Below, piece after piece: positions 1 through 39,426 of a DNA stretch of 64,000 nt. A program made the translations under genes and the position numbers. Within the stretch, counting starts at the first letter, position 1; the number at the start of each line of letters is the position of its first letter. The notes beneath the pieces were generated by a model, which saw only the letters and a list, made by a program, of their open reading frames with translations, ran no database searches and was not told the origin of the DNA. Source of the DNA: Patescibacteria group bacterium (GTDB taxonomy: Bacteria > Patescibacteriota > Minisyncoccia > Phycocordibacterales > UBA9973); NCBI GenBank assembly GCA_040390725.1, contig JAZJXT010000001.1, positions 152,586-216,585 of the forward strand, written 5' to 3'.

Positions 1-103
1 GCCGACCAGTCGCTCACCGGTGCTTCAGCACAATTAGGACTTTTATTAGGTAGCTAAAATATTTGTATTTGTTATAATATATTTAATATATTTCGATAAA
101 ATC

Positions 104-1498
104 ATGTCCCAAAAAATTTCAAAATTTTTAATTCTCACTTTGGCATTTGCGTCATTTATTTTTCTACCGAGTTTTTCTTCAGCTCAAGCAACATCATATT
201 ACTATAATTGGTATTTAGATACTGATACAACAGGTACAAAAGGACCATTTACATCACTAGAGCTTTGTGAGCAGGATGCTAGTGCGGGAGTATCTTCCGG
301 GGCGTATCAATCAACAGATCCTTGTTATACTGCTGCTACGCCATTAGGTTTGAGTTCTGGAAATTTAACTCCAAATTCTGCCGATGTTATAGCCACAGGT
401 CTTATTCCGAATACTGCATATCGTATCAGTATTTATTGGAAAAATAATCCTACAGATCAAGGTTATAGCAGGAAAGATGTGAGTTTTACCGCTAATAATT
501 CAGGCACTGAGACGGCATCTTTTTCTTCTATTCCTCCATCAATATCTTATGATGCTCGTTTATATAAAGTTTCAACGGGGCAGGTATTAAAAACTACAAC
601 TTTTACTACTAAAGCATTGCAAATAAGTGTGACACTTAGAGATTTAACAGCGACATCCAGTGAATTAATAGCCGGCGGGCTTTTCCCATACGGTACTGAT
701 TCGTATCTTTTTACTGTTTTAGTTACTTCTCCCGGTACTGCTTCAAATACTCAAAAACAAACAGTGACTCCCAGCAATAGCAATATAGCTACGGCTACAT
801 TTTCTGATTTGATTCCAGGGGTTTCATACACATTGATTATTTCCCATGGCAATCAAGACGATTTAAAAGAATTTGATTTTACAAAAGCTTTTCATGGTAT
901 TTGTGGTTCTGCCAATGGTCAATCTTTTCAAACAGCACCCACCGGGGATACGAATCTCTGCTCTGTAGGTATTTCTGATTCAATGACTGAAGACATAGCT
1001 TCATGGACATGGACATGTAAAATAAAAGATTCAAATGATTCTTCTACCAGTCAATATTGCTCCGCCACTAAGGCAGGGAATCCACCTCCGCCGACTCCTC
1101 CGACACCTCCATCATCAGGAGGCAAGGGTTTTGTCGGTGCTTTAGTTCCTTGCGGAATAAGTGAAAACAAGCTCAATACCAATGCGGTCACGGGCGCTCA
1201 GACGGGAGGAGGGGTCACACAGCCTTGCGGTTTTTATGATCTCCTAACTCTTGTAAATAACGTTGTAAGATTTATTATTTTTAATTTAGCTTTGCCCATA
1301 GCTGCTATCATGTTTGCTTATGCGGGTTTTCTACTTATCACTGCGGGGGGAGAGTCTGGTCAAATGACAAAAGCAAAAGGTATTTTTTCCGCAGTTGTGA
1401 TGGGCCTTATTTTTGTCGCGGCTGCATGGCTCATAGTGAAGCTCATTTTGGTTGTATTGGGTTACAAATCCGATTGGATAACTTGGTTTGGATTTTGA
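104..1498 (+). CDS. Secreted multidomain protein: signal peptide, FN3-like beta modules, Cys-rich region, Pro-rich linker (PPPPTPPTPP) and a C-terminal VirB2/TrbC-like pilin domain (two TM helices)
   Basis: ORF track 464 aa. N-terminal signal peptide ending SSAQA. The C-terminal about 110 aa have the same Cys-pair, two-TM architecture as the five downstream small paralogs. The stop overlaps the next start. Confidence 0.6.
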   Translation: MSQKISKFLILTLAFASFIFLPSFSSAQATSYYYNWYLDTDTTGTKGPFTSLELCEQDASAGVSSGAYQSTDPCYTAATPLGLSSGNLTPNSADVIATGLIPNTAYRISIYWKNNPTDQGYSRKDVSFTANNSGTETASFSSIPPSISYDARLYKVSTGQVLKTTTFTTKALQISVTLRDLTATSSELIAGGLFPYGTDSYLFTVLVTSPGTASNTQKQTVTPSNSNIATATFSDLIPGVSYTLIISHGNQDDLKEFDFTKAFHGICGSANGQSFQTAPTGDTNLCSVGISDSMTEDIASWTWTCKIKDSNDSSTSQYCSATKAGNPPPPTPPTPPSSGGKGFVGALVPCGISENKLNTNAVTGAQTGGGVTQPCGFYDLLTLVNNVVRFIIFNLALPIAAIMFAYAGFLLITAGGESGQMTKAKGIFSAVVMGLIFVAAAWLIVKLILVVLGYKSDWITWFGF

Positions 1499-1895
1499 AA
1501 TAATGTATAATAAAGATATGAATTTTAAATTAAAAAATTTTATAGGAATGTTCACAGTCGGTATTTTTGCTTTTTTTATTTTAGTTTTGCCGGTTGTTTC
1601 TCTTGCTAATACCGACAATACAGCTCCTGCTACTGTTCAAGTCGTCAATCCTATCAGCGTGAATGATCTAAATGGTTTTCTTAAAGTTATTTTAGAAGGC
1701 GTAGTTAAAATCGGTATGCCTATTATTGCCCTTGCTATTATTTATTGTGGCTTTCTTTTTGTTTCCGCTCAAGGCAACACAGCTGAGCTAGAAACAGCCA
1801 AGAAATCTCTGATGTATACTCTCATAGGAGCAGCATTATTATTAGGCGCTTGGGCTATAGCTCAGCTCATAACAGAGACTATTACAAGCCTTTAA
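1488..1895 (+). CDS. VirB2/TrbC-like T4SS pilin family protein (paralog 1)
   Basis: 135 aa: signal peptide, then two hydrophobic helices separated by a short polar loop (PIIALAIIYCGFLFVSAQGNTAELETAKKSLMYTLIGAALLLGAWAIAQLI). The start is ambiguous (ATG at 1488, 1503 or 1518). Confidence 0.55.
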   Translation: MDFEIMYNKDMNFKLKNFIGMFTVGIFAFFILVLPVVSLANTDNTAPATVQVVNPISVNDLNGFLKVILEGVVKIGMPIIALAIIYCGFLFVSAQGNTAELETAKKSLMYTLIGAALLLGAWAIAQLITETITSL

Positions 1896-1899
1896 AATT

Positions 1900-2265
1900 A
1901 TGAAGAAATTTATTTTATTTTCTTTAATTTCTCTTACTCCTTCATTTGTTTTTGCGCAGGCTTCGAGTCCCGTATGCAGTATCGGTACAAACTTCAAAGA
2001 TCTTGTTAATTATATATCTTGCCTTATAGAAGGGTCGGTGATTCCTTTTATATTCGGTTTAGCTGTCGTTGCATTTGTCTGGGGTGTTGTGAAGTTCCTC
2101 ATGAGTGCTGAGGATGAAACTCAAAAATCCCAAGGCAAACAATTCATGCTTTGGGGCATCATAGCTTTGGCTGTGATGGTGTCCATCTGGGGTTTGGTAA
2201 AATTACTGACCAATACTTTCGGAGTAAAATATGTTATTCCTCAGGTTCAAAATAAATCACAATAA
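1900..2265 (+). CDS. VirB2/TrbC-like T4SS pilin family protein (paralog 2)
   Basis: 121 aa: signal peptide, a Cys pair before TM1 and the conserved core ...FVWGVVKFLMSAEDE..KQFMLWGIIALAVMVSIWGLVKLLTNTF. Confidence 0.6.
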   Translation: MKKFILFSLISLTPSFVFAQASSPVCSIGTNFKDLVNYISCLIEGSVIPFIFGLAVVAFVWGVVKFLMSAEDETQKSQGKQFMLWGIIALAVMVSIWGLVKLLTNTFGVKYVIPQVQNKSQ

Positions 2266-2281
2266 CAATAACAATAACAAT

Positions 2282-2890
2282 ATGAAAAAATTTATAATTT
2301 TATTTTGTATAATAGTTCTGGCATTATCTTTTAAAATGGCTTTTGCTCAGTACAGCTGGAATTGGACTAATTATTCCGGGACTAATCAAAATATGAATGG
2401 ATCTGGCCTCACTACTCAGGGTACAAATACATGGGGAGGTACTACTCCTACGAATCCTTGGGGTTGGGGTTTTGGCTGGGGTAATGTAGCGCCTGTGATG
2501 AAGGTCCAAGGCCAGAAGCAAGTCGTCGGGGATAAACAAATCGTCGGCTCTACCAGTGATGCTATTACAGGTTCCGCTATGCCTTTTTCCTGTGCATTTA
2601 ATAACAATAATCCTACAGCCAAAGATATATTTAATTATGGTACCTGCGTACTAGGGAATTCTATTATTCCTCTTTTATTTTTATTTGCTTCTATTGTTTT
2701 TATGTGGGGTGTCATCCAATACGTTATCGGTGGACAAGAAGAAGCAAAAAAGGATAAAGGAAAGCAGTTTATGTTTTGGGGCATTATTGCCCTTTTTGTG
2801 GCTGTTTCGGTATGGGGATTAGTAGGTATTTTAACCGGTACATTTAATCTGAAAACCACTGCGCCGTCAGTACAGCCGGTTTCCGAGTAG
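2282..2890 (+). CDS. VirB2/TrbC-like T4SS pilin family protein (paralog 3) with a Gly/Trp/Asn-rich N-terminal extension
   Basis: The start is taken at MKKFIILF (ATG 2282) rather than the track start at 2231. The C-terminal core FMWGVIQYVIGGQEEAKKDKGKQFMFWGIIALFVAVSVWGLVGILTGTFNL matches the paralogs. Confidence 0.6.
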   Translation: MKKFIILFCIIVLALSFKMAFAQYSWNWTNYSGTNQNMNGSGLTTQGTNTWGGTTPTNPWGWGFGWGNVAPVMKVQGQKQVVGDKQIVGSTSDAITGSAMPFSCAFNNNNPTAKDIFNYGTCVLGNSIIPLLFLFASIVFMWGVIQYVIGGQEEAKKDKGKQFMFWGIIALFVAVSVWGLVGILTGTFNLKTTAPSVQPVSE

Positions 2891-3010
2891 TCCACAGTAT
2901 TGTTTGCAGGCTGTGAGATGGTTGTGATACAATATACGTGCCTAATATTTTAGGAAATTATTATTAACAGGTCGTTTATTATTATAAATTAAGATTTAAG
3001 AATTTTTATT

Positions 3011-3397
3011 ATGAAAAAGAAATTTATCGTGTTGGGTAGCGTTTTGTCTTTTGCGCCGATGCTTGCTTTCGCGCAGACAGTTTGTACTACAAATGTTGGA
3101 ACTATCGACTGGCTATTGTGTAGAGTGGGAGATTTACTAAACACAGTTGTGCCTGTGCTTATCGCTTTAGGTGTTGTTTACTTCATCTGGGGTGTCGTTA
3201 CTTATGTAGTTGCAGGTGATGAAGAAGCAAAGAAGACAGGACGAGACAGAATGATCTACGGTATCATCGGTCTAGTTGTTATCGTGTCTATCTGGGGATT
3301 GGTTAGTATCTTGAAGAGTACATTCAATCTTTCAAGTTCAAACCCTGGCACTGTGCAAGTTCCTTGTATTCCTATCCCTCCAAACGTAACTTGTTAA
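3011..3397 (+). CDS. VirB2/TrbC-like T4SS pilin family protein (paralog 4)
   Basis: 128 aa: signal peptide, Cys pair and the core YFIWGVVTYVVAGDEEAKKTGRDRMIYGIIGLVVIVSIWGLVSILKSTFNL. Confidence 0.6.
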   Translation: MKKKFIVLGSVLSFAPMLAFAQTVCTTNVGTIDWLLCRVGDLLNTVVPVLIALGVVYFIWGVVTYVVAGDEEAKKTGRDRMIYGIIGLVVIVSIWGLVSILKSTFNLSSSNPGTVQVPCIPIPPNVTC

Positions 3398-3413
3398 TTT
3401 AATTTTTAATTAG

Positions 3414-3770
3414 ATGAATTTATTTTCTGTAAACATAGCTTATGCTGCGACTTCAAGATTTGATACATTTATCAGCAATGTTGATAGCAAAATTATCAAT
3501 CCGCTTATAATTTTATTATTTGTCTTGGCTATCGCTTATTTTTTGTGGGGAGTCTTTCAATTTATCTCCAATCAAGATAATGAAGAAAAAAAGACCGACG
3601 GCAAAAATCATATGATTTATGGAATATTGGGGCTGGTTATCATGATCAGTGTCTGGGCTATTCTTCAGGTTATTTTAAACACCTTGGATATACAAAAGTC
3701 TGGTCAGATAAATCCTGAAGAGGGAACAGTGCACTTAAATGATTACAATCCTCCATCATCTAATAATTAA
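3414..3770 (+). CDS. VirB2/TrbC-like pilin family protein (paralog 5, divergent, no obvious leader)
   Basis: 118 aa with the core AYFLWGVFQFISNQDNEEKKTDGKNHMIYGILGLVIMISVWAILQVILNTL. It is followed by a strong terminator. Confidence 0.5.
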   Translation: MNLFSVNIAYAATSRFDTFISNVDSKIINPLIILLFVLAIAYFLWGVFQFISNQDNEEKKTDGKNHMIYGILGLVIMISVWAILQVILNTLDIQKSGQINPEEGTVHLNDYNPPSSNN

Positions 3771-3840
3771 AAACGCAAAAAAAGAAAAAAATATAGGCGT
3801 ACCGAAAGGTACGCCTATTGCGTTTTTACGCGTTTTTTTA
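3770..3840. terminator. Bidirectional rho-independent terminator between convergent genes
   Basis: Nested inverted repeats aaaacgca.../taggcgtacc-gaaa-ggtacgccta/...tgcgtttt with T-runs on both strands. Confidence 0.6.
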
Positions 3841-4401
3841 TTGCCAGACTTCAAATTCTGTGAAGCCTGATTTTTCCTCCGACCGGAATATATAAGTTCC
3901 GGGCGGGTCATGGCGGTTTAATTTAATGCCTGGCGCATCATGGTAAGTTTCCCCGTCCGGGGTAGTTACCTTGACTTTGCCATACATTACTGTCGACGAC
4001 TCGTAAGTTTTCACAATAACCTTTGTGCCGTCTTTAGTGGCAACATATGAGGTTCTTACTTTTCCTACGGGGACAGTATTTGTACTTCCAGTGTTTCCAG
4101 TACCATCTTTTTTTGGTGCTGGATCAGAATGCCAAAACATAAATTTAAATATCCAGGCCATAATCATAAAGGCCAATGTAATTGGAACCCATTTTGAGAA
4201 CCATGACCCGAAACTAAACTTATGACCGTGACCACTTGCGTGACCACCAGAATGAGCATCACCATGTTCAGATTTGGAAACTGCTTTTTTGACAGCTTTG
4301 CCTGCTCCTGAAAATAGTTTTCTAAGAACAGAACCAAAGAACAACAAGGCAATCAGGGCAAGAATTACCCAGGGGGTGAGATTTATGAATATTAAATTCA
4401 T
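3838..4401 (-). CDS. Hypothetical membrane protein with a His/Gly-rich loop
   Basis: 187 aa: N-terminal TM, a HGDAHSGGHASGHGHK loop and a second TM. It overlaps the upstream gene by 4 nt, so an operon is likely. Confidence 0.45.
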   Translation of the reverse strand: MNLIFINLTPWVILALIALLFFGSVLRKLFSGAGKAVKKAVSKSEHGDAHSGGHASGHGHKFSFGSWFSKWVPITLAFMIMAWIFKFMFWHSDPAPKKDGTGNTGSTNTVPVGKVRTSYVATKDGTKVIVKTYESSTVMYGKVKVTTPDGETYHDAPGIKLNRHDPPGTYIFRSEEKSGFTEFEVWQ

Positions 4402-5786
4402 ATTGCACCTCCCTTGGCTTCTGTGATAGCGCTAGCTATCATCAGTGCGATTTTGTCATAATCGTTTCCTGACCCACTTCGGCTTGTCAGATAGGTGTGT
4501 TTGCTTTTTTCGAATGCTGTTACTTCTGCTTGAAGTTCCATCATTCTTGTGGCATCAACACCAGCGTTTTTGGCTTCTTCTAAGTAAGCCTTTAGTGCAA
4601 GTGCCTTACCTTCACCTTCTTGTGTCAGTCTAACTTTTTCACCTTCAGCAACTTGTATTGCCTTAAGTTTGTCTCCCTTACCAGCAATTTCTTTTTTGTC
4701 AGAGACAAAAACTTCGGCTAAGGCGTCGTTGACAGCATCATGGATACTTTTGGAAGCACCCAGGGCAATAACACGAGAATCCAGACAATCGAGCCCTAAT
4801 TTACCTTTTTCAATGAGAGTTTTAACATCTCTGGTAAGTGCCTTATCAAGTACGTCTTTGGTCTGAAGAAATATCAACATCGCATAAGTGTACTTTTTGA
4901 ATTCTGTATTAATTGTGCTTTTCACCATTAACGCTACTTGGCGCCCAAATTCCTTTTTGCGCTTTTCTGGATTTTCACCTGCAACGTTTTCAACATACAG
5001 TACTAAATTACTTTTTTTTGTAGTGATTACTACTGTTGGCTGTAAAACAATTTGCTTGTGGTTTGGGTCTTTCAAAATCCTCTTCTTGTCTTCTTCAGAA
5101 AAGATAAGATTACCATTTTCATCTTTTTCTTCCCAATTTACTAATTCAGGACTTCCTGTTGTGACATCATTTAAGTGATGGATCATAAGATTTTCCTGTT
5201 CTTCTTTAGAAAAATCTTTGTCTATCTCTGCTTGCTCCACTGCTGTTATCATGTCTACAAGATTAGTATTTGTGTCTTTGCTTATACTCATCAATCCGGG
5301 ACAAATTAAACAGGGATGTCCCGCATTAGTTGTTCCGAGAGCTAAGCCTCGAGCAAAGTAAATTACTGCAATTTCGTCTGGCTCTTGACTGTTCCATGAC
5401 AATTTAATAATGGCAATTGGCCAAATAAAAAGTAAAACAGCCCACAAGTTTAAGCGAAATCCAGGGAATTCAAATGCCATGAAACTTAGATCTATGGTAG
5501 ATTTTCCTATCTCGAATTGTCCGAGATTATGATGAAAAATCCATACCCACATAACAAATAACCAGGGCAGGGCCATTCCAAAAAAGTTCAGGAACCAGAA
5601 AATCTTTATACGATCTTCTCTTCCTTCTATTGGATTAGGATACAAACTCCTCAGAGCCTTACCTATTGTCTTTAGGTTACTTGAAAACCAAGCACTGATT
5701 TTATTTAGTTTGCCGATAAGCCAAAATAGGCTGACCGCTAACCATTTGAGAGCTTTGTCTCCCATCTTTTTCATAAGATTTTTCAT
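4398..5786 (-). CDS. Hypothetical membrane protein with a possible SPFH/band-7-like C-terminal region
   Basis: 462 aa: N-terminal TM helices; the C-terminal half is charged and helical (..EGEGKALALKAYLEEAKNAG..). The domain assignment is tentative. Confidence 0.4.
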   Translation of the reverse strand: MKNLMKKMGDKALKWLAVSLFWLIGKLNKISAWFSSNLKTIGKALRSLYPNPIEGREDRIKIFWFLNFFGMALPWLFVMWVWIFHHNLGQFEIGKSTIDLSFMAFEFPGFRLNLWAVLLFIWPIAIIKLSWNSQEPDEIAVIYFARGLALGTTNAGHPCLICPGLMSISKDTNTNLVDMITAVEQAEIDKDFSKEEQENLMIHHLNDVTTGSPELVNWEEKDENGNLIFSEEDKKRILKDPNHKQIVLQPTVVITTKKSNLVLYVENVAGENPEKRKKEFGRQVALMVKSTINTEFKKYTYAMLIFLQTKDVLDKALTRDVKTLIEKGKLGLDCLDSRVIALGASKSIHDAVNDALAEVFVSDKKEIAGKGDKLKAIQVAEGEKVRLTQEGEGKALALKAYLEEAKNAGVDATRMMELQAEVTAFEKSKHTYLTSRSGSGNDYDKIALMIASAITEAKGGAI

Positions 5787-6021: not shown

Positions 6022-6816
6022 TTATTCGTGTTTCATTGGTTCGTTGTGAAAGTCTTTTTCAAAAAAACCTTTTCTGATTATTAACACTAATACTAGGATA
6101 AGAATCGCAAGCAATAACCATTGAAACAAAGTCGAAGGCAAGAATCCGTGCCATGCAAAGAGGGAATTAGCAGCTAGGTTTGATTTGTCTACAGTAGCGC
6201 TGGCAGGGGTTTCTGTTTTTGCTGTGGTTTTTGTCGAAGTGCTTTTTGATACAGTTTGTGTTGGTGCAGGGCTCGGTGCAGGGTTTACATAAGCTACCAC
6301 CGAAGCTGTAGTGACCGTGAAGAATACTCCATTTGAAGTTCCTCCGCTCGGCATCGGGTTAAAAACACTGATCACATATTTACCGGGAGTCATGACGTCA
6401 CTTGCATTTAAGGTGACTGTTAATTTACCAGAGTTGTTATAGCTGGTAGGGCGGTATGAATTATTGAATTCAGCCATTGAGCCGGGGATAAAGTTTGACC
6501 CTGTTAAAACTACAGCCATGTTTCCGCTTATTTCCGTGACTTCATTTGGACTTACGGAATAAAGTATAGGCATAGGGTTTGAAGTGTTTGAGTTGGTATT
6601 ATTGGTATTGTTGTAATTATAAGTACCGTTTTGATTGTAGTTGTAGTTATAAGATCCATCAGTAGCTCCGCTTTCATAAGAGTATGAATCGCTATATGAT
6701 GCATTTACTTTCATGGGCATTGCTACCAAGGCTAGGGCTAGCACTGCTAATACTCCAAAGCTTTTAAATATTAAGTTTTTATTTATTGATGTATTCATAT
6801 ATAGAAAGTATAGCAC
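6022..6816 (-). CDS. Secreted Asn/Tyr-rich protein with an IPT/TIG-like beta domain and a C-terminal TM anchor
   Basis: 264 aa: signal peptide, low-complexity N/Y/T stretch, PILYSVSPNEV..GKLTVTLNASDV..GKYVISVFNP..FFTVTT and a C-terminal hydrophobic anchor. Confidence 0.5.
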   Translation of the reverse strand: MLYFLYMNTSINKNLIFKSFGVLAVLALALVAMPMKVNASYSDSYSYESGATDGSYNYNYNQNGTYNYNNTNNTNSNTSNPMPILYSVSPNEVTEISGNMAVVLTGSNFIPGSMAEFNNSYRPTSYNNSGKLTVTLNASDVMTPGKYVISVFNPMPSGGTSNGVFFTVTTASVVAYVNPAPSPAPTQTVSKSTSTKTTAKTETPASATVDKSNLAANSLFAWHGFLPSTLFQWLLLAILILVLVLIIRKGFFEKDFHNEPMKHE

Positions 6817-17220: not shown

Positions 17221-19068
17221 ATGAATATGAGTAAATTTAATAAATTTTATTTAAAAGGACTTATTTTTAGTTTGTCATTTTTAATATCAAGTACGCCGTT
17301 TTTTACATTTGCCGCTTTTCATCCAGGAGATACTTTTAATCCAAATTGTTCACCGGTTGATCCGGATTGTACTGTATTGATGAGTACATCGAGCTGGTCT
17401 GCTGTCAGCGCCAAGCCGACAACTGTCGCAGGTTTTGGTATTACGGATGCATTTACTGGAAATTATTCCGACCTCACAAACAAGCCGACACTTTTTTCCG
17501 GAGATTATAATGACTTAACAAATAGACCGACTTTATTTTCTGGAAATTATTCTGACCTTGTCGGTACGCCTCCTCCAGTATCTGTAACAATTAAAAATAC
17601 TTATGTCGTGGACGATGAAGCCGCACGAGATGCTTTGACCGGTGTTTTGTCGGGAGATGTGGCAGTCCTGACAAATTCAAATACTACATATATTCGCACA
17701 CAAAATGATACTTGGCAGCAACTTTTAACATCGAGTACAAATGCAGTGGATTCTGTAAATGGCAAGACAGGAGTCGTGAGCTTAAATTCGGATGACATAG
17801 CTCAAGGTGCTACTAATAAATATTTCTCTGGAAATTATTCTGATTTAACAAATCTTCCGACTTTATTTTCTGGAGATTATAATGATTTAACAAACAAGCC
17901 TACTTCATTATCATTCGATGGTAATTTCTCAAGCCTTGCCAATAAGCCCACAACACTCGCAGGGTATGGCATAACTGATGGTAATAGTGGCAGTCCTGAT
18001 TGGTCCAGCATAACAGGTAAGCCAAGTTTTGCAACAGTGGCAACCAGCGGTTCGTATTCTGATTTAACAAATAGACCTACTTTATTTTCTGGAGCATATT
18101 CCGACCTCACCGGTAAACCAAGTTTATTTTCAGGAAGCTACACAGATCTCACAAACAAGCCGACATTATTTGATGGTAATTTCTCAAGTTTAACAAACAA
18201 ACCCACAACACTCGCAGGGTATGGCATAACTGATGGTAATAGTGGCAGTCCTGATTGGAGTTCTATTTTAAATAAACCAACGACTCTTTTGGGCTATGGT
18301 ATTACAGATGCATTAAAAACAACAAATAATCTATCTGATTTAATTAGTGCTGGAACGGCTAGAACTAATTTAGGATTAGGAAGTTTGGCCACACAATCAG
18401 GAATTTTTTCCGGCACTTCTTCCGGTACAAATACCGGCGATCAGACTATTACACTTACAGGAAATGTGACGGGTTCAGGCACCGGTTCATTTGCGACGAC
18501 CATTGGGTCAGGAGTAGTTACCAATGCCATGTTGGCTGGAAGTATCGATCTCACTTCAAAAGTTACCGGGAATTTACCGATTACAAATTTGGTTTCAGCT
18601 ACAAACAGAGATGCCAGTCACTTCTTGAGAGGAGATGGTACATGGCAGAGCTCTACGACTACAAGTGTTCCTAATAATGTTAAAAATTCTACTGGTACTG
18701 CAGCTGTTGCACTCGCAACCACTGAATCACAAGTCACCACTGTAGCTATTACTCCCTCTAGTGCTTCTAATAGAATTATGATTACAGGATTTCAACAATT
18801 TGATAAATCCGCGACCACTCCTGTCACGACTGATACAGTGCGAATAGAAAGAGGTGGTACGGCTTGTGCGACTGGTTCTACTCAAGTAGGTGTGGACGCA
18901 GGCGCTAATTCTAAAGGAGCTGCTACTGATAAAAATAATGTAGGATATAGTTTTGTTGATAGTCCGGCTACTACAAGTGCTACGACTTACCGTGTTTGCG
19001 TTGTCGGAAGTGCTGTAAACAGCTCTGCTACTAATTACTCGATAGTTGTTGCTGAAGTAGGGCCATAA
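17221..19068 (+). CDS. Secreted repeat protein with about 15 copies of a 13-14 aa (G)xYxDLTNKPTLFSG motif (phage-tail-fibre-like) and a Ser/Thr-rich C-terminal domain
   Basis: 615 aa with a signal peptide; repeats such as GNYSDLTNKPTLFSGDYNDLTNRPTLFSG and KPTTLAGYGITDGNSGSPDWSSI alternate; the C-terminus ...LSDLISAGTARTNLGLGSLATQ continues into a beta-rich domain. Confidence 0.55.
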   Translation: MNMSKFNKFYLKGLIFSLSFLISSTPFFTFAAFHPGDTFNPNCSPVDPDCTVLMSTSSWSAVSAKPTTVAGFGITDAFTGNYSDLTNKPTLFSGDYNDLTNRPTLFSGNYSDLVGTPPPVSVTIKNTYVVDDEAARDALTGVLSGDVAVLTNSNTTYIRTQNDTWQQLLTSSTNAVDSVNGKTGVVSLNSDDIAQGATNKYFSGNYSDLTNLPTLFSGDYNDLTNKPTSLSFDGNFSSLANKPTTLAGYGITDGNSGSPDWSSITGKPSFATVATSGSYSDLTNRPTLFSGAYSDLTGKPSLFSGSYTDLTNKPTLFDGNFSSLTNKPTTLAGYGITDGNSGSPDWSSILNKPTTLLGYGITDALKTTNNLSDLISAGTARTNLGLGSLATQSGIFSGTSSGTNTGDQTITLTGNVTGSGTGSFATTIGSGVVTNAMLAGSIDLTSKVTGNLPITNLVSATNRDASHFLRGDGTWQSSTTTSVPNNVKNSTGTAAVALATTESQVTTVAITPSSASNRIMITGFQQFDKSATTPVTTDTVRIERGGTACATGSTQVGVDAGANSKGAATDKNNVGYSFVDSPATTSATTYRVCVVGSAVNSSATNYSIVVAEVGP

Positions 19069-19078
19069 TTCATTGTAA

Positions 19079-19936
19079 ATGAAAAGAAAAATTATTTTTA
19101 TTTTAATAATGTTGTGTATTGTGCCTTGGGTTTCTTTTGCATCTTCGACTGATGGCATTATTGATTCTGATTCGGCACATCATTATGCTTGGAGTGAAAA
19201 TTACGGTTGGTTTAATTTTTTTGCTAATCAAGGTGATATTCATGTTACCGACTCTGTGCTTACCGGAAATATTTGGAATACAAATATAGGTTGGATAAAT
19301 TTGTCGCCAAATAATTCCGGAGTTAGGAATGATGGGGAGGGGAATCTTTCAGGATCTGCTTGGAATACAAATATTGGATGGGTTAATTTTTCAGGAATTA
19401 CTATAGATTCCAATGGATTATTTCATGGATTTTTAACTGTTACAAATGCCGGTAGGATAACTTTTGATTGTGATCATTGCAGTGTCAAAACTGACTGGCG
19501 CCCGGCAAGTGTTCGCAATGTTGTTCAACAGAATAATGTTCAGGCGAATACAGGTGTTAGAAATAGCGGAAATATTCTTGCTAATCAGACTACAAGTCAA
19601 ACTAATTCTACGGATACAAGTCCTGCCTCAACTCCTGAAACTTCCACACCTCCGTCTGTCATGGCACAAGAAATTATTCCTGCCGGTGACATTTCTTTTA
19701 ATGCTCCGACTGCAACTGAATCTATTAAAAATAATGCCCCAGTGGCAGGAAATATCACTTCAGGAATTACTGAAGTATCAGATCAAGCCCCTTCGCTTTT
19801 TGATGTTACTGCAGAGCCAGTTTTACAAATAAAAAAACAATATTCCTTTTCTCCCATTACTATTTCAGTTTTAGCGGGATTATTATTGGCCCTACTTGCT
19901 TTATTGGCCATTAAGAAATTTTCAAATTTTAAATGA
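19079..19936 (+). CDS. Secreted protein with W.N.NIGW.N.S repeats and a C-terminal TM anchor
   Basis: 285 aa: signal peptide, repeats AWSENYGWFNF / IWNTNIGWINLS / AWNTNIGWVNFS, a Ser/Thr/Pro linker and a C-terminal hydrophobic anchor. Confidence 0.5.
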   Translation: MKRKIIFILIMLCIVPWVSFASSTDGIIDSDSAHHYAWSENYGWFNFFANQGDIHVTDSVLTGNIWNTNIGWINLSPNNSGVRNDGEGNLSGSAWNTNIGWVNFSGITIDSNGLFHGFLTVTNAGRITFDCDHCSVKTDWRPASVRNVVQQNNVQANTGVRNSGNILANQTTSQTNSTDTSPASTPETSTPPSVMAQEIIPAGDISFNAPTATESIKNNAPVAGNITSGITEVSDQAPSLFDVTAEPVLQIKKQYSFSPITISVLAGLLLALLALLAIKKFSNFK

Positions 19937-20796
19937 AATCTAAGATAATTTTATTAAATAGTTTCGTGGGTATTTATTTATTTTTTTTGATGATAGGTTT
20001 TATTTTTACTCCGTATGTTGTATCTGCTCAAGAAAGTATAGAAAGGAATGCCACAATAAATGCAGGCAGTAATGGTATCGTGGAAAAGGTGGCAGCAGGA
20101 GAACTCTTGCCTGTTTCTGTTAAATTATCAAATTTTGGAGGAGGCAAAAGTGTAGATGTTTTAATTCAATATGAAATTTTTTCTGACAAGGGAGAGAAAA
20201 TTTATTCTACAAATGAAACCGTGGCAGTAGAGACTACAGCTAACTTTGTTAAAATAATACAAATACCATACGGAACAGCACCGGGGACTTACACAGCCAA
20301 AACTTCTATTATTTACGACGGACAGCTCGTTCCCGCTACTACTCAATTTAATTTTAAAGTTGAGCGAAAAATTCTAGGTTTATTTGAAAGCGCTTTCTTT
20401 TTATACGGAGGTATTACGATTTTTGTAAGTATTTTTATGGTTTTATTTGTGCATCTTTTGACTAGACATAACCGCAAGGTTAGATCTAGTCCGATTGATT
20501 ATTTTGATATTCCCCGCAACGAAAGAACTTTTTATGAAATTTTAAGTGATGTCATAATGGAAATGCGCGAACGTGTAGGTGATAAAGCTATTGATATTGC
20601 AGCAGGTGTCGAGGGACTAAAGATTGATAAAAAATCCGGAAGAGTATTGTCTCTTTCCAGGGATCCTGCGAAAATTATTTCTGACTTAGTTTCAGCTTAT
20701 GAAAAGTTGCTTGGAATAAAAGTTTTGTCTTTGGTGGACCGTACAGGACTCGAACCTGCCACCCCCTCATTGCAAATGAGGTGCTCTACCAGATGA
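19933..20796 (+). CDS. Hypothetical membrane protein; the 3' end (about 60 nt) overlaps tRNA-Ala antisense
   Basis: 287 aa; the start overlaps the upstream stop (ATGA). The last roughly 20 codons are the reverse complement of the tRNA-Ala gene. Confidence 0.4.
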   Translation: MKSKIILLNSFVGIYLFFLMIGFIFTPYVVSAQESIERNATINAGSNGIVEKVAAGELLPVSVKLSNFGGGKSVDVLIQYEIFSDKGEKIYSTNETVAVETTANFVKIIQIPYGTAPGTYTAKTSIIYDGQLVPATTQFNFKVERKILGLFESAFFLYGGITIFVSIFMVLFVHLLTRHNRKVRSSPIDYFDIPRNERTFYEILSDVIMEMRERVGDKAIDIAAGVEGLKIDKKSGRVLSLSRDPAKIISDLVSAYEKLLGIKVLSLVDRTGLEPATPSLQMRCSTR

Positions 20797-34063: not shown

Positions 34064-34954
34064 ATGAATAAAGTAAATAAAAAAGTTCAAAATTTAATAG
34101 ACTTGAAAAAGACTTTTGATTCTCTTAAAAAGGGTAAGGAGTCTCTTTTGGCTGTTTTAGGTGAAGTGGAGCTTGCTGAGTCGGTTTATAACTCAAATGC
34201 TATTGAGAATAGTACTTTAACTCTTCCTGATACAGAAAAAATACTTCTGGATTTAGAAGTTTCAAAAGATTATTCACTTCGCGAAGTTTTTGAGGCAAAG
34301 AATTTAGCTCGCGTATATGAATATGTAAAAAATAAAAAAGATAATATTGTCTTAAATCAAGACACGCTTCTTTTTATCCACGGTTTACTTATTGGTGGTA
34401 TTGATGATTCTATCGCCGGCAGATTCAGAAAAGCTCATGAATTTGTGAGAGTGGGTAAACATATCGCGCCTGCTCCGGAGCATATCATGCGCATGATAGA
34501 AGTTTTAATAAATGAATATAAAACAAATCATGATTTAAATATTTTTAAAAAAATAGCGTATTTTCATTTACAATTTGAAACAATTCACCCGTTTTGTGAC
34601 GGCAATGGACGTATTGGTCGCGTTCTTATAAACTTACAGCTTCAAGAGTTCGGTTATCCGAATATAATTATTCGTGACAAAGAAAAGAAAATTTATTATA
34701 AAACCTTTTCACAATTTAGAGATGAAAAATCCACGAAGCAAATGGAGCAAGTAATATATTTATCTCTTTCAGAAAGTTTAAATAAAAGAATTGCATATTT
34801 ACAAGGAAAAGAAATTATAACTTTAGCCGAGTATTCAAAAGATAAATCTTTATCTTTGGCTGGACTTATAAACTCCGGCAGGCGTCAGACTATTCCTGCA
34901 TTTCGTGAAAAAGGTGTTTGGAAAATCAGCAATAGCTATGTCGTGGAAAAATAA
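34064..34954 (+). CDS. Fic family protein (AMPylase type) with an N-terminal inhibitory motif
   Basis: Fic motif HPFCDGNGRIGR, plus S-x-x-x-E-N (SNAIEN) in the N-terminal helix. Confidence 0.85.
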   Translation: MNKVNKKVQNLIDLKKTFDSLKKGKESLLAVLGEVELAESVYNSNAIENSTLTLPDTEKILLDLEVSKDYSLREVFEAKNLARVYEYVKNKKDNIVLNQDTLLFIHGLLIGGIDDSIAGRFRKAHEFVRVGKHIAPAPEHIMRMIEVLINEYKTNHDLNIFKKIAYFHLQFETIHPFCDGNGRIGRVLINLQLQEFGYPNIIIRDKEKKIYYKTFSQFRDEKSTKQMEQVIYLSLSESLNKRIAYLQGKEIITLAEYSKDKSLSLAGLINSGRRQTIPAFREKGVWKISNSYVVEK

Positions 34955-35239
34955 ATGAGCTACTACGCAGATAAAGGGAATAAATATCCGCAAAATCCTG
35001 AATTAGTTTTGGACTTTCACGGCTACACGACGATGGAGTGCAAAGAAGAACTCGATGAGCTTATTGGAAATAGTGAATACTCGCATATCCGCATCATCGT
35101 AGGCAAAGGGCAAAATAGCGCAAACGGACCCATCCTCCCAGACTTTGTCCGCAATTATCTCACAACCCGCAACATCCGCTTTAATCAATCCAAAATTCAA
35201 GCCGGCGGCGCAGGTGCCTTGGAGGTGTTTTTGGATTAG
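34955..35239 (+). CDS. Smr domain protein
   Basis: LDFHGYT..E....L...IG..EY.HIRIIVGKGQNS fits the Smr pattern. The start abuts the Fic stop (TAAATG). Confidence 0.6.
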   Translation: MSYYADKGNKYPQNPELVLDFHGYTTMECKEELDELIGNSEYSHIRIIVGKGQNSANGPILPDFVRNYLTTRNIRFNQSKIQAGGAGALEVFLD

Positions 35240-35277
35240 AATTTTTTTAAAAAATGATGTAGAATCTATAAGTTATA

Positions 35278-37985
35278 TGATAAGCCTTAATGAAATTAAA
35301 AATCGAGCAGTTACTTTTTCAAAAGAGTGGGAACGCGAAGTAAGTGAAGATGCAGAAGCTAAAAGCTTTTGGGATGGATTTTTTGATGTGTTTGGTATGT
35401 CTCGTCGCCGCGTGGCTTCTTTTGAGCATCAAGTAAAAAAGCGTGATGGCTCTCAAGGATATATAGATGTATTTTGGAAGGGTGTAATGCTTGCCGAACA
35501 TAAATCTCGCGGTAAAAGCTTGGATAAAGCATTTACTCAAGCAAAAGATTATTTTCCTGGACTTAAGGAAGATGAATTACCAAGATATGTAATAGTTTCA
35601 GATTTTGAAAAAATTAGAGTTTATGATTTAGATAAAGAAACTGAAAAAGAATTTTCACTAGGGGATCTTTCAAAGAATATAGATTTATTTGATTTTATTT
35701 CTGGACATAATTCTATTGTTGATTATGCAAAAGAAGAAATGGCAAGCATTAAAGTTGCTCGCCTTATGGCTGATTTTCATAATGAAATTGCTAAGACGGG
35801 TTATTCTGGGCATGATTTAGAAGTATTTTTGATTAGAATTTTATTTTGTCTTTTTGCAGATGATACTGAAATTTTTCCAAAAAATAGTTTTAAAAATTAC
35901 ATAGAAACTAAGACAAATATAGACGGCTCTGACTTAGGTTTACACTTAGGTCAAATTTTTGATGTTTTAAATACTCCAAATAATAAACGACAAACAAATT
36001 TAGATGAACAGTTAAAGCAATTTCCGTATATCAATGGTGGAATTTTTTCTGAACAGATACGCCCAGTATCTCTTGATGCCGGAGCACGCTTGAAACTCAT
36101 AATATGTTGTAATGCTGATTGGTCAGAAATATCCGCTTCAATTTTCGGATCTTTGTTTCAGGGTGTTATGAATGAAAAGGAGAGACGACAGCTTGGTGCG
36201 CATTATACATCTGAAGCCAATATTTTAAAACTCATACACCCTCTTTTTCTTGATGAGCTTTATATAGAATTCGATGAAGTAAAATATGATATAAAAAAGT
36301 TAGATATTTTCCATAAGAAACTTACCACGTTAACTTTCTTAGATCCCGCCTGTGGTTGTGGTAATTTTTTGGTGGTGGCATACAGAGAACTTCGTAAATT
36401 AGAACTCGAGGTTTTGAAACGAAAAGATAAAATAGGTCAAATGATGCTTTTGGGTGCGCAAGATTTATCTATTGTAAATGTGAATCAATTTTATGGCATA
36501 GAGATAGAAGAATTCCCGACGCTTGTCGCTCGCGTAGCTATGTATTTAGTTGACCATCAAATGAACACGGAACTTTCAAAAACATTTGGGCACGTGTATG
36601 CTCGTATTCCGCTACGTGAACCGGCAAGTATAGTAAATGATGATGCTCTTACTACTGATTGGGAAAGTGTTGTTCCAAAAAATAAACTTTCTTATATTCT
36701 TGGTAACCCACCATTTATAGGTAGTAAATTAATGTCTGAACAGCAACGAAAAAATCTTATTGCTTGTTTTGATAATAATGATGGTGTAGGTGTTCTTGAT
36801 TTTGTTACAGCGTGGTATGCAAAGGCTGCAAAATATATTAATGATACCGATATAAAAGTTGCTTTTGTTTCCACGAATTCTATATCACAAGGTGAACAAG
36901 TTGGTATACTTTGGAGCTATTTAAATACTTTTAAGATTGAAATTCAATTTGCCCATCAAACTTTCAAGTGGAATAATGATGCACCGGGCGTCGCTGCTGT
37001 TTTTTGTGTAATTATTGGTTTTAGTAATAAAAATAAAAATGAAAAATATCTTTATGAGTATGAAAATGTAAAATCTGAACCGAAAGAAAGCATGGTGTCT
37101 CATCTTAATGCCTATTTAGTAAAAGGAGATGATGTTTTTATAAAAAAAAGATCAAAACCTATATGTGAAGTGCCTGAAATGAGTTTCGGCAATATGCCTC
37201 TTGATGGTGGTAATTTATTGTTTACAAATTCAGAAAAGGAAGAATTTATACTGAATGAACCAGGGGCAGAAAAATTTATTCGTCCACTTATTAGTGCAAA
37301 AGAATTTTTGAATAATGAAAAACGGTGGTGTTTATGGCTTGTAGGAGTAGAACCACAAAAATTAAGAGAAATGTCTTTGGTATTAGAACGAATTCAAAAA
37401 GTAAAAGAATTTCGTGAAGCAAGTGTTGCACCTTCTACTAAAAAATTTGCATCAATTCCAAGCCTTTTTAGAGATAAAAATAATCCGGATTCTACTATTG
37501 TTATTCCTAGAGTTTCTTCAGAAAATAGAAAATATATACCTATGGGATTTTTTACTAAAGAATCAATTGTAAGTGATACTTGTATGTCTTTACCAAATGG
37601 AAATTTGTATCATTTCGGAATTTTAGAATCAGATATGCATATGATATGGGTTAATTATACTTGTGGAAGATTAAAAAGTGATTATCGCTATTCAAAAGAT
37701 ATTGTTTATAATAATTTTCCTTGGCCGGAATTTAAAGAAGTTGTTTTAACAAATGAAGCTAAATTCAAAGTTTCTGAATGCGCGCAAGCTGTTCTTGACG
37801 CAAGGGCTAGGTTTCCAAATAGCTCACTTGCGGATTTGTATGATTCGAATACTATGCCACCGGATTTAGTAGAAGCACATAATAATCTAGATAGGGCAGT
37901 GGATGCCTGTTATGGTAGAAAGTTTAAAAACAAAGAGGAGAGAATAGAATTTTTGTTTGAGTTGTATAAGGTGTATACTAAATGA
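35278..37985 (+). CDS. MmeI-family Type IIL (IIG) restriction-modification enzyme (endonuclease plus N6-adenine methyltransferase plus TRD in one polypeptide)
   Basis: The N-terminus FSKEWERE..AKSFWDGFFDVFGMSRRRVASFEHQVKK...LPRYVIVSDFEKIRVYDL closely parallels MmeI. MTase motif I is LDPACGCGNFLVVAYRELR and motif IV is ILGNPPFIGS. The track start 35145 is rejected. Confidence 0.85.
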
Positions 37986-38583: not shown

Positions 38584-39426
38584 ATGAAAATAGAAATCAT
38601 ACAATCGCTTGTAAATAATTTTGAATCTTATGCCAAAAAAACTGAAGAAGGTGTGGAATTTTGGCTTGCTAGAGATTTGCAACAACTTTTAGGATATGAC
38701 AAGTGGGATAATTTTTTGAATGTGATTTCAAAAGCTAAAATTGCTTGCGAAAATACAGGACACAATACTTCTGATCATTTTGCCGACGCTGGGAAAATGA
38801 TAGATTTAGGTAAGGGGGCACAAAGAGAAGTCTCAGATATAATGCTTACGAGATATGCTTGCTATTTGATTGCTCAAAATGGTGATCCAAGAAAAGAGGA
38901 AATTGCTTTTGCTCAGAACTATTTTGCACTTCAAACTAGGAAATTTGAAATTATTGAAAAAAGAATTCAAGAGTTTGAAAGAGTGAAGGCACGTCACAAA
39001 CTTTCTGAAACAGAAAAAGAATTATCTAGTGTTATTTTTCAACAAACTCGTAGCGATAAAAATTTCGCTCTAATTCGCAGTAAGGGAGATAAGGCTCTTT
39101 TTGGATACGGAACAAGTGAAATGAAATTGAAATTAGGTGTTCCTCAAGGTAGAGCCCTTTCTGATTTTCAACCAACTATTCTTTTGAAAGCAAAAGATTT
39201 TGCAACAGAAATTACAATTTTTAATACAAAAGCAAAAAATTTAAGAACAGAACAGTCGATTTCAGACGAACATATTATAAACAACAGGAGTGTTCGAAAA
39301 ACACTCCTGTCTCGTGGTATTAGACCTGAAAGTTTACCAAAAGAAGAAGATATTAAAAAAGTAGAACGAAAATTGTCATCTGATGAAAAGAAAAATTTAA
39401 AGAAACCAGATAAGCTTAAAAAATAA
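38584..39426 (+). CDS. DNA-damage-inducible protein D (DinD) homologue
   Basis: EFWLARDLQQLLGYDKWDNF..SDHFADAGKMIDLGKGAQREVSDIMLTRYACYLIAQNGDPRKEEIAFAQNYFALQTRK aligns by eye with the E. coli DinD N-terminal half. Confidence 0.7.
   Translation: MKIEIIQSLVNNFESYAKKTEEGVEFWLARDLQQLLGYDKWDNFLNVISKAKIACENTGHNTSDHFADAGKMIDLGKGAQREVSDIMLTRYACYLIAQNGDPRKEEIAFAQNYFALQTRKFEIIEKRIQEFERVKARHKLSETEKELSSVIFQQTRSDKNFALIRSKGDKALFGYGTSEMKLKLGVPQGRALSDFQPTILLKAKDFATEITIFNTKAKNLRTEQSISDEHIINNRSVRKTLLSRGIRPESLPKEEDIKKVERKLSSDEKKNLKKPDKLKK

Follow-up and report, generated by a model that had tools for sequence, protein, structure and literature searches.

The first 3.8 kb of a 64-kb window from a Patescibacteria group bacterium (contig JAZJXT010000001.1; the window is the whole stretch of DNA that was analysed) contain six co-oriented open reading frames (orfs) on the plus strand, spanning positions 104-3770, which encode a tandem array of small membrane proteins of a type IV secretion system (T4SS) pilin family, the first of them with a large adhesin-like head. 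Every one of the six passes the curated whole-protein gathering score of the Pfam family T4SS_pilin (PF18895, 26.6 bits), with 34.0, 32.0, 31.9, 33.0, 45.5 and 43.2 bits for genes 1 to 6, respectively, and a six-frame scan of the whole window with a family hidden Markov model (HMM) found the shared module confined to these genes. Because the threshold is passed by all six and the module occurs nowhere else in the window, the array is real and far beyond chance, and the six tandem VirB2/TrbC-like pilin paralogs reported in a preliminary description of the window are upheld. The products of gene 1 (MES2023204.1) and gene 5 (MES2023208.1), the two that were looked up, are identical to proteins that NCBI names "MAG: pilin" (MAG, metagenome-assembled genome) and places on a contig of 274,923 bp. 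An artefact of hydrophobic, low-complexity sequence was considered and rejected: type-specific motifs are kept, the curated Pfam model is passed and no further orf of the window matches the module.

Gene 1 (104-1498, 464 aa, type A) holds the first position of the array, as its counterparts do in related genomes. Gene 2 (1503-1895, type B) is called at 130 aa on contig L001, which is identical to the source; the longest orf opens with TTG at 1488, and besides the start at 1503 there is an alternative ATG at 1518. Gene 3 (1900-2265, 121 aa), the first copy of type C, encodes a signal peptide, the pair Cys26/Cys41 and a two-helix hairpin. Gene 4 (2231-2890), the second copy of type C, was called at 219 aa; it probably starts at ATG 2282 (MKKFIILF) and encodes 202 aa. 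A run of asparagine codons (approximately 2255-2281) lies just 5′ of this likely start. The Gly/Trp/Asn-rich segment that the preliminary description assigned to the third paralog belongs to gene 4, where it forms an insertion followed by the pair Cys121/Cys139 and then the hairpin. Gene 5 (3011-3397, 128 aa, type D) encodes a signal peptide, Cys25/Cys37, the hairpin and a Pro-rich C-terminal tail with two further cysteines, and gene 6 (3414-3770, 118 aa, type E) an 11-residue leader, no cysteine, the hairpin and a polar C-terminal tail. Consecutive genes are separated by 19, 4, 16, 120 and 16 bp when the inner starts are taken.

Alignment and hydropathy give the module a constant order: a short extracellular segment, helix 1, a loop of 10-14 residues rich in Lys and Glu/Asp (e.g. 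GDEEAKKTGRDR), helix 2 and a polar tail. In the alignment of the six genes, where the paralogs are 13-25% identical to gene 1, each loop has 2-4 Lys/Arg and 1-4 Asp/Glu residues. Two helices and a short charged loop are the hallmarks of VirB2-like proteins (bioRxiv 10.64898/2025.12.18.695078); both are evident in the alignment, in the hydropathy profiles and in the hairpin of an AlphaFold2 (AF2) model of gene 1, which departs from the small size of such proteins owing to its large N-terminal head. Signal peptides ending in A-x-A are present in genes 1-5 (SSA/QA, SLA/NT, VFA/QA, AFA/QY and AFA/QT), and cleavage would be expected at these sites. Gene 6 has only the 11-residue leader MNLFSVNIAYA, which is kept in its orthologs, so that the signal peptide and two transmembrane helices foreseen in the preliminary description apply to five of the six genes. 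The conserved cysteine pair that it attributed to all six is likewise found in part of the array: genes 1, 3, 4 and 5 have it and genes 2 and 6 do not, a division that is itself conserved in approximately 80 species, where the two cysteine columns are conserved at 96 and 99% in type A, 83 and 95% in type C and 88 and 90% in type D, and are absent from types B and E. Other type-specific features that are kept include the leader of type E and a C-terminal WxGF of type A.

The types were defined by comparison with relatives. When GTDB species genomes were scanned with a type-C alignment, 172 relatives matched and 80 were kept, mostly Candidatus Nomurabacteria/Paceibacterota MAGs of the Parcubacteria group; the source of the window is a Nomurabacteria-like member of Patescibacteria. 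In our orf and HMM analysis of these 80 species genomes, nearly every complete locus has the pilins in the order A-B-C-D-E on one strand. Identity between modules of different species is 54-64% within a type, as against 16-42% between types, whether of the same genome or of different ones. In an all-versus-all comparison of four genomes the best matches of the window genes are positional, with genes 3 and 4 both matching position 3; orthologs in relatives are 49-51% identical for gene 2 (L002, L003, L005), 48-55% for gene 5 and 55-62% for gene 6. Genes 3 and 4 are 40% identical to each other, and on these alignments the array of the window reads as five types with type C duplicated. The A/B and C/D/E subgroups are homologous in profile comparison (hhalign probability 96.4%, E 1e-9). 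No close relatives of gene 1 were found among the GTDB species genomes searched.

Variation in the array is confined to the type A head and to the slot between types B and D. In that slot, 43 genomes have one orf in which a D-like module is joined to a C-like one, and three modules occur in a few (e.g. L046 9415-10152, L005 7764-8474, L066 9872-10867); the window has two separate type C genes instead of a fused orf. Because identity is so much higher within types than between them, and orthology is positional, the paralogs are to be regarded as ancient, individually conserved parts and not as a fast-diversifying cassette. The pattern is that expected of old, functionally distinct subunits under purifying selection. 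The "diversified cassette" of the preliminary description is thus misleading: there are five ortholog types in fixed order, conserved across species, and only the N-terminal head of type A is hypervariable. An origin of the array in a mobile element was rejected, since its GC content equals that of its flanks and, in over 80 species, the locus keeps its synteny with gyrA, infB and clpB. A tblastn search of 72,556 plasmids with gene 2 returned nothing meaningful.

The head of gene 1 accounts for most of that protein. A signal peptide (aa 1-27) is followed by a cysteine-containing segment modelled with low confidence, two fibronectin type III (FN3)-like domains, a Cys-rich and polyproline region (aa 260-337), the pair Cys350/Cys375 and the pilin hairpin. 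The AF2 model, built on 46 homologs, has a signal helix at residues 4-24; beta-sandwiches at aa 82-168 (nt 347-607) and aa 175-248 (nt 626-847), both with a predicted local distance difference test score (pLDDT) above 90; a Cys-rich stretch of low confidence and a polyproline linker; and a hairpin at aa 377-451 (module nt 1139-1495) consisting of helices 377-413 and 418-451 (pLDDT 84-91). The Pfam model fn3 (PF00041) falls just short on gene 1, with 23 bits against a cut-off of 25, and a Foldseek search of the PDB ranks tandem fibronectin type III domains at the top (E 3.3e-9, probability 1.00). The fusion of FN3-like, Cys-rich and polyproline domains to a pilin module, which the preliminary description had proposed, is thereby substantiated.

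The homologs of gene 1 are 281-583 aa long. Their C-terminal ~20% is conserved, with 34-64% identity (mostly above 45%), and 43 of the 46 contain PF18895; the regions before it vary or are unrelated and include fn3, Big_3, He_PIG and other domains. The number of residues that precede the module in type A genes ranges from 5 to 652, being less than 50 in 48 of 79 and 50-652 in the other 31, and the longer heads include FN3-like, TSP_1 and other domains.

The array is embedded in a syntenic block that reads gyrA, a methyltransferase gene, a gene for a solute-binding protein (SBP) of the SBP_bac_1 family, and then the large pilin and four or five small pilins. Position 1 of the window is in frame within the SBP_bac_1 gene, whose 3′ end (1-57, plus strand) lies 46 bp before gene 1 on contig L001. 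An SBP gene stands immediately 5′ of type A on the same strand in every one of the 81 loci whose upstream orf could be scored; where genes were called, the gap is 1-47 bp wide. The SBP gene may be co-transcribed with the array. The upstream SBP_bac_1 gene has no adjacent ABC permease or ATPase genes. A candidate extended -10 promoter element, TGTTATAAT, can be read in the 46-bp gap (70-78, plus strand), with a poor -35 element; a scan for the sigma-70 consensus was at background (20 sites, 19.2 expected) and did not list this element, the -35 being poor.

On many long contigs of relatives (L008, L022, L026, L033, L039, L054, L070, L076, L083, L085), the array is only 10-60 kb from a contig end, always on the upstream side; the assembly may break there recurrently, for instance at an rRNA operon, or the array may lie close to where circularised genomes start, near the origin of replication.

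Downstream of the array, relatives have a convergent small membrane protein gene and, in most loci, a convergent gene for a membrane protein of 330-480 aa, beyond which are rbfA, infB and other housekeeping genes, with clpB reached in two contigs. In the window, a bidirectional terminator-like hairpin (3793-3818, with an 11-bp stem, 6 G-C pairs and T-runs on both strands) lies between the pilin operon and the convergent pair, and because it divides the two, the pair is considered a separate transcription unit. The first of the pair (3838-4401, minus strand) encodes a 187-aa membrane protein that probably falls outside the pilin transcription unit. Hydropathy confirms it as the His-rich membrane protein noted earlier on the other strand, with a transmembrane helix, a His-rich segment, a second transmembrane helix and a beta-rich C-terminal domain. 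It matches no Pfam family, and an iterative jackhmmer search ties it to its positional orthologs (47 orfs, two of them the query itself). The idea that it might be an NfeD-like partner of an SPFH protein was dropped, there being no NfeD in 16 members of the family.

The second gene of the pair (4398-5786, minus strand) overlaps the start of the first by 4 bp and encodes an orphan membrane protein of 462 aa (392 aa in NCBI, V4439_00830) with a single homolog (45% identity) among 5.8 billion proteins. The label "putative SPFH-like" given to it earlier could not be confirmed and is plausible by position only: the protein has no Pfam hit, its hhalign probability against Band_7-positive positional equivalents is at most 6.6%, neither BLASTP against the positional equivalents nor a local jackhmmer search links it to SPFH, and its AF2 model (pLDDT 42.7) is too poor for a fold search, while Band_7 (PF01145) is present in some positional equivalents (L083 with 67.9 bits, L065 with 62.3 bits, and also L003). 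At least two mutually unrecognisable families occupy this slot in relatives, a case of very fast divergence beside a highly conserved operon. A gene at 6022-6816 (minus strand) encodes a surface protein with a CoaZ_rpt_PGGG domain (NF058597, 81.7 bits) and a C-terminal membrane anchor; in 64 of 84 loci a member of its family lies downstream of the array, and the relative in L026 matches TIG/IPT.

The remainder of the window is ordinary chromosome, encoding IF2, ClpB, LeuRS, LepA, MurJ, DapA/B, tRNAs, an MmeI-type restriction enzyme and ABC exporters. On the plus strand, a cluster of genes encodes surface proteins, secreted or anchored, that have no Pfam hits: one of 615 aa in which 'SDLTNKPTLFSG(D/N)Y' repeats abound (17221-19068), one of 285 aa that has 'WNTNIGW(I/V)N' repeats and is anchored in the membrane at its C-terminus (19079-19936), and a 287-aa membrane protein (19933-20796). 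The MmeI-type restriction-modification enzyme (35145-37985) has all five MmeI domains and is flanked by a Fic-domain protein (34064-34954) and a Bro-N protein (38584-39426); this region may be a small defence or mobile island amid housekeeping sequence.

The family to which the six proteins belong is very large. A profile of the six matched 50,873 representative clusters (50% identity) at E ≤ 1e-3, which is consistent with the reported dominance of PF18895 among freshwater-specific protein clusters. Many of the matches are single polypeptides with 2-16 tandem modules (polypilins, e.g. P0053, P0070, P0101 and P0127, among them proteins of 820 aa with 8 modules and 1,775 aa with 16); three of them were read, and the repeats are genuine. 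The 8-module protein (L090 9925-12387) is encoded beside further pilin genes and PKD-repeat proteins, and the 16-module protein (L092 10001-15328) on a contig with the archaeal markers ribosomal protein L39e and Csa1/Cas4. No VirB4 is encoded within 10 kb of either locus, and no description of polypilins was found in the literature searched.

The explanation favoured here, with moderate confidence, is that the products of the operon are the building blocks of a heteromeric VirB2-type pilus or conduit, which would be assembled by a T4SS encoded elsewhere in the genome and would include an adhesin-bearing subunit. Each product would be exported with its N-terminus outside, five of the six by way of a Sec-type signal peptide, leaving the two-helix hairpin in the membrane with its short Lys/Glu-rich loop facing the cytoplasm. 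If they behave like VirB2 and PrgF, the hairpins would then be extracted from the membrane and stacked on a VirB6-like platform, driven by a VirB4-powered T4SS of the Gram-positive type, to form a pilus or conduit directed towards the host cell. Type A would be the host-binding subunit, its exchangeable N-terminal ectodomain (two FN3 domains, a Cys-rich module and a polyproline stalk) being displayed outward. Since both termini are on the outer face in solved VirB2 pili (bioRxiv 10.64898/2025.12.18.695078), the type A head could indeed face outward and serve as a host-binding adhesin. Family membership, topological features, domain architecture, orthology and synteny are direct observations; Sec-dependent cleavage and export, polymerisation, dependence on a T4SS and the adhesin role are predicted.

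The proposal that the proteins work like VirB2 rests on their topology, the Pfam family assignment, a weak similarity to TrbC and NF045849, and published genetics in relatives. NF045849 is the NCBIfam model of the Mbov_0395 family of pilin-like conjugal transfer proteins of Mycoplasma integrative conjugative elements (cut-off 40 bits); gene 6 exceeds the cut-off with 41.1 bits, genes 2-5 score below it at 23.4-35.2 bits, and gene 1 has no match. The genetics comes from Candidatus Southlakia epibionticum, the one Patescibacteria species tested, in which a series of pilins within the T4SS cluster (SEML1_0006-0019 region) is essential (Wang et al. 2023, PMC10633639); its array is described as comprising six pilins (2025 review, PMC12857230).

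Several results weigh against this proposal. Of the two Pfam models to which the preliminary description appealed, PF18895 is passed by all six genes, whereas TrbC/VirB2 (PF04956, gathering score 27.9 bits) is matched significantly, yet below threshold, by three, namely gene 2, the most TrbC-like paralog (24.9 bits, E 2.3e-5), gene 1 (17.6 bits) and gene 6 (15.4 bits), and not at all by genes 3, 4 and 5. No profile similarity to VirB2 of Agrobacterium tumefaciens (pTiC58) was detected by hhalign, with a probability of 1.1% for types A/B and 2.6% for types C/D/E, and profile searches of all PDB sequences with both pilin subgroups gave chance-level membrane matches and no solved pilin chain. Phmmer searches with A. 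tumefaciens proteins found no VirB4, VirD4, VirB11 or VirB6 in the window, bearing out the earlier remark that it contains no T4SS ATPases, and none within 10 kb of the array in 84 related loci. A strict set of five types, together with polyproteins of 2-16 modules, is unusual for an extractable pilus subunit. To our knowledge, no filament has ever been seen for these A-E proteins. As for the missing ATPases, a separate site for the pilin operon is compatible with the presence of a T4SS, because virB4 of Paceibacteria is usually located near dnaA/dnaN (PMC12102498).

The same results admit a second explanation, considered unlikely though by some way the stronger of the two rivals, namely that the modules stay in the membrane as a five-component channel or scaffold that tethers the type A ectodomain, a fixed complex or anchor independent of any T4SS, which may take part in nutrient capture together with the solute-binding protein of the same locus. 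In none of the 84 loci is the array linked to a T4SS ATPase, and it is always directly 3′ of the SBP_bac_1 gene, at the short distances given above; its composition is fixed at five types; and polypeptides of 2-16 modules are accommodated by a topology with both termini outside, which permits concatenation within the membrane, two of their loci being without VirB4 within 10 kb and one of these looking archaeal. However, the homologous array of Saccharibacteria is inside a T4SS cluster and co-essential with the T4SS, a pilin gene is near virB4 in 1,135 of the 1,948 Patescibacteria assemblies in which VirB2-like pilins and VirB4 occur together (PMC12102498), and the family has its sub-threshold similarity to TrbC/VirB2 as well as its similarity to pilin-like proteins of conjugative elements. 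Moreover, synteny with the SBP gene is no proof of functional coupling, because it comes from a single clade in which the entire neighbourhood is syntenic.

VirB2 paralogs of Bartonella and Anaplasma have reportedly been suggested to serve variation. A comparable role for the array, as a rapidly diversifying pilin or adhesin cassette of interchangeable variants for antigenic variation or host-strain switching, has been suggested for such arrays in a survey (PMC12102498) and would suit the low identity of the paralogs to one another, the great differences in the type A head between species and the duplications and fusions in the B-D slot, but it is improbable and, the type A head excepted, the pattern of orthology already goes a long way to refute it for the hairpin modules: one-to-one orthologs of each paralog stand at the matching position in nearly all of the 80 species and are far closer to it in sequence than are its neighbours in the same genome, type-specific features (the cysteine pair, the leader of type E, the WxGF of type A) are conserved, and no repeats or switching elements were found.

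A bolder extension of the favoured explanation, speculative and a little less probable than the fixed membrane complex, is that in these ultra-small, single-membrane bacteria types A-E form an obligately heteromeric VirB2-type filament or conduit that is genetically uncoupled from T4SS loci, co-expressed with the SBP and fitted with swappable adhesin heads, and that its module is a general building block, used also in the polyproteins of 2-16 modules, one of them apparently archaeal. If this were true, the conduit would represent a pilus or channel architecture without a described counterpart, and a specific candidate for the structure by which episymbionts draw material from their hosts.

A large part of bacterial diversity belongs to Patescibacteria, which apparently live off host cells, and how they attach to these cells and extract material from them is an open question. 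The locus adds no new kind of system, but its comparison across species gives that question a sharper form in a clade that is large and uncultivated: rather than interchangeable variants, the paralogs resemble five separate components of a single assembly, each of them conserved, and their operon is detached from the ATPase genes yet tied to a solute-binding protein. The type A subunit is a natural candidate for a host-binding adhesin in a group in which the survey reported no PrgB-type adhesins (PMC12102498). A recent review calls the role of the T4SS of Patescibacteria "completely unknown" (PMC11665869).

Tandem VirB2-like pilins in a Candidate Phyla Radiation (CPR) genome are a kind of locus that has already been published, and at least genes 1 and 5 were already annotated as pilin; the VirB2-like interpretation advanced in the preliminary description agrees with the Pfam assignment of all six genes, the genuine FN3-pilin fusion and the origin of the DNA in a CPR MAG. 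Quinonero-Coronel et al. (2025) catalogued 441 arrays of 2-11 VirB2-like genes in 383 Patescibacteria assemblies, most abundantly in Microgenomatia and Saccharimonadia, with a mean identity within arrays of 25% (PMC12102498). The array of the window falls under their definition (at least two tandem PF18895/PF04956 genes of low identity in Patescibacteria), with six adjacent genes and an identity of 16-42% between types. Their paper mentions neither ectodomain-fused nor multi-module pilins. What is new here is modest: the fixed five-type operon, the first subunit with an adhesin-like head, the linkage to the SBP gene and the detachment from T4SS genes.

Like the published Patescibacteria arrays (PMC12102498, PMC10633639), that of the window consists of small, divergent, tandem PF18895 genes, is chromosomal and involves no relaxase. 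It differs from them in that it is not in or near a T4SS cluster, in that it is a fixed A-B-C-D-E operon throughout its clade, near gyrA, methyltransferase and SBP genes, and in having a large FN3-containing head on the product of its first gene. With the conjugative VirB2/TrbC pilins, such as VirB2 of A. tumefaciens and TrwL of R388, the window proteins share a leader, two helices, a charged loop and, in genes 2-6, a small mature size, but their similarity to PF04956 is sub-threshold and they have no profile match to A. tumefaciens VirB2. Where those systems have one major pilin plus VirB5, the window has several obligate paralogs, one of them with an ectodomain of ~350 aa. The Patescibacteria host is also thought to have a single membrane, unlike the Gram-negative hosts of T4SSs.

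PrgF and the NF045849 proteins are, like those of the window, pilin-like proteins of single-membrane bacteria with two helices and a charged loop, the likeness to PrgF being by description only. Conjugation by a Gram-positive T4SS requires PrgF, which is VirB2-like and for which a pilus built on VirB6 has been modelled (ter Beek et al. 2025, bioRxiv 10.64898/2025.12.18.695078); the PrgF type of T4SS belongs to the MPF-FATA class, to which the VirB4 of Patescibacteria is related. In contrast to the window, with its six chromosomal genes away from T4SS genes, PrgF and the NF045849 proteins are encoded by single genes beside virB6 on mobile elements. The minor or tip pilins of the VirB5 type resemble the proposed type A, by analogy only, in placing an adhesin-bearing subunit beside a structural subunit; the fold of VirB5 is unrelated to that of VirB2, whereas the putative adhesin of the window is fused directly to a VirB2-like hairpin.

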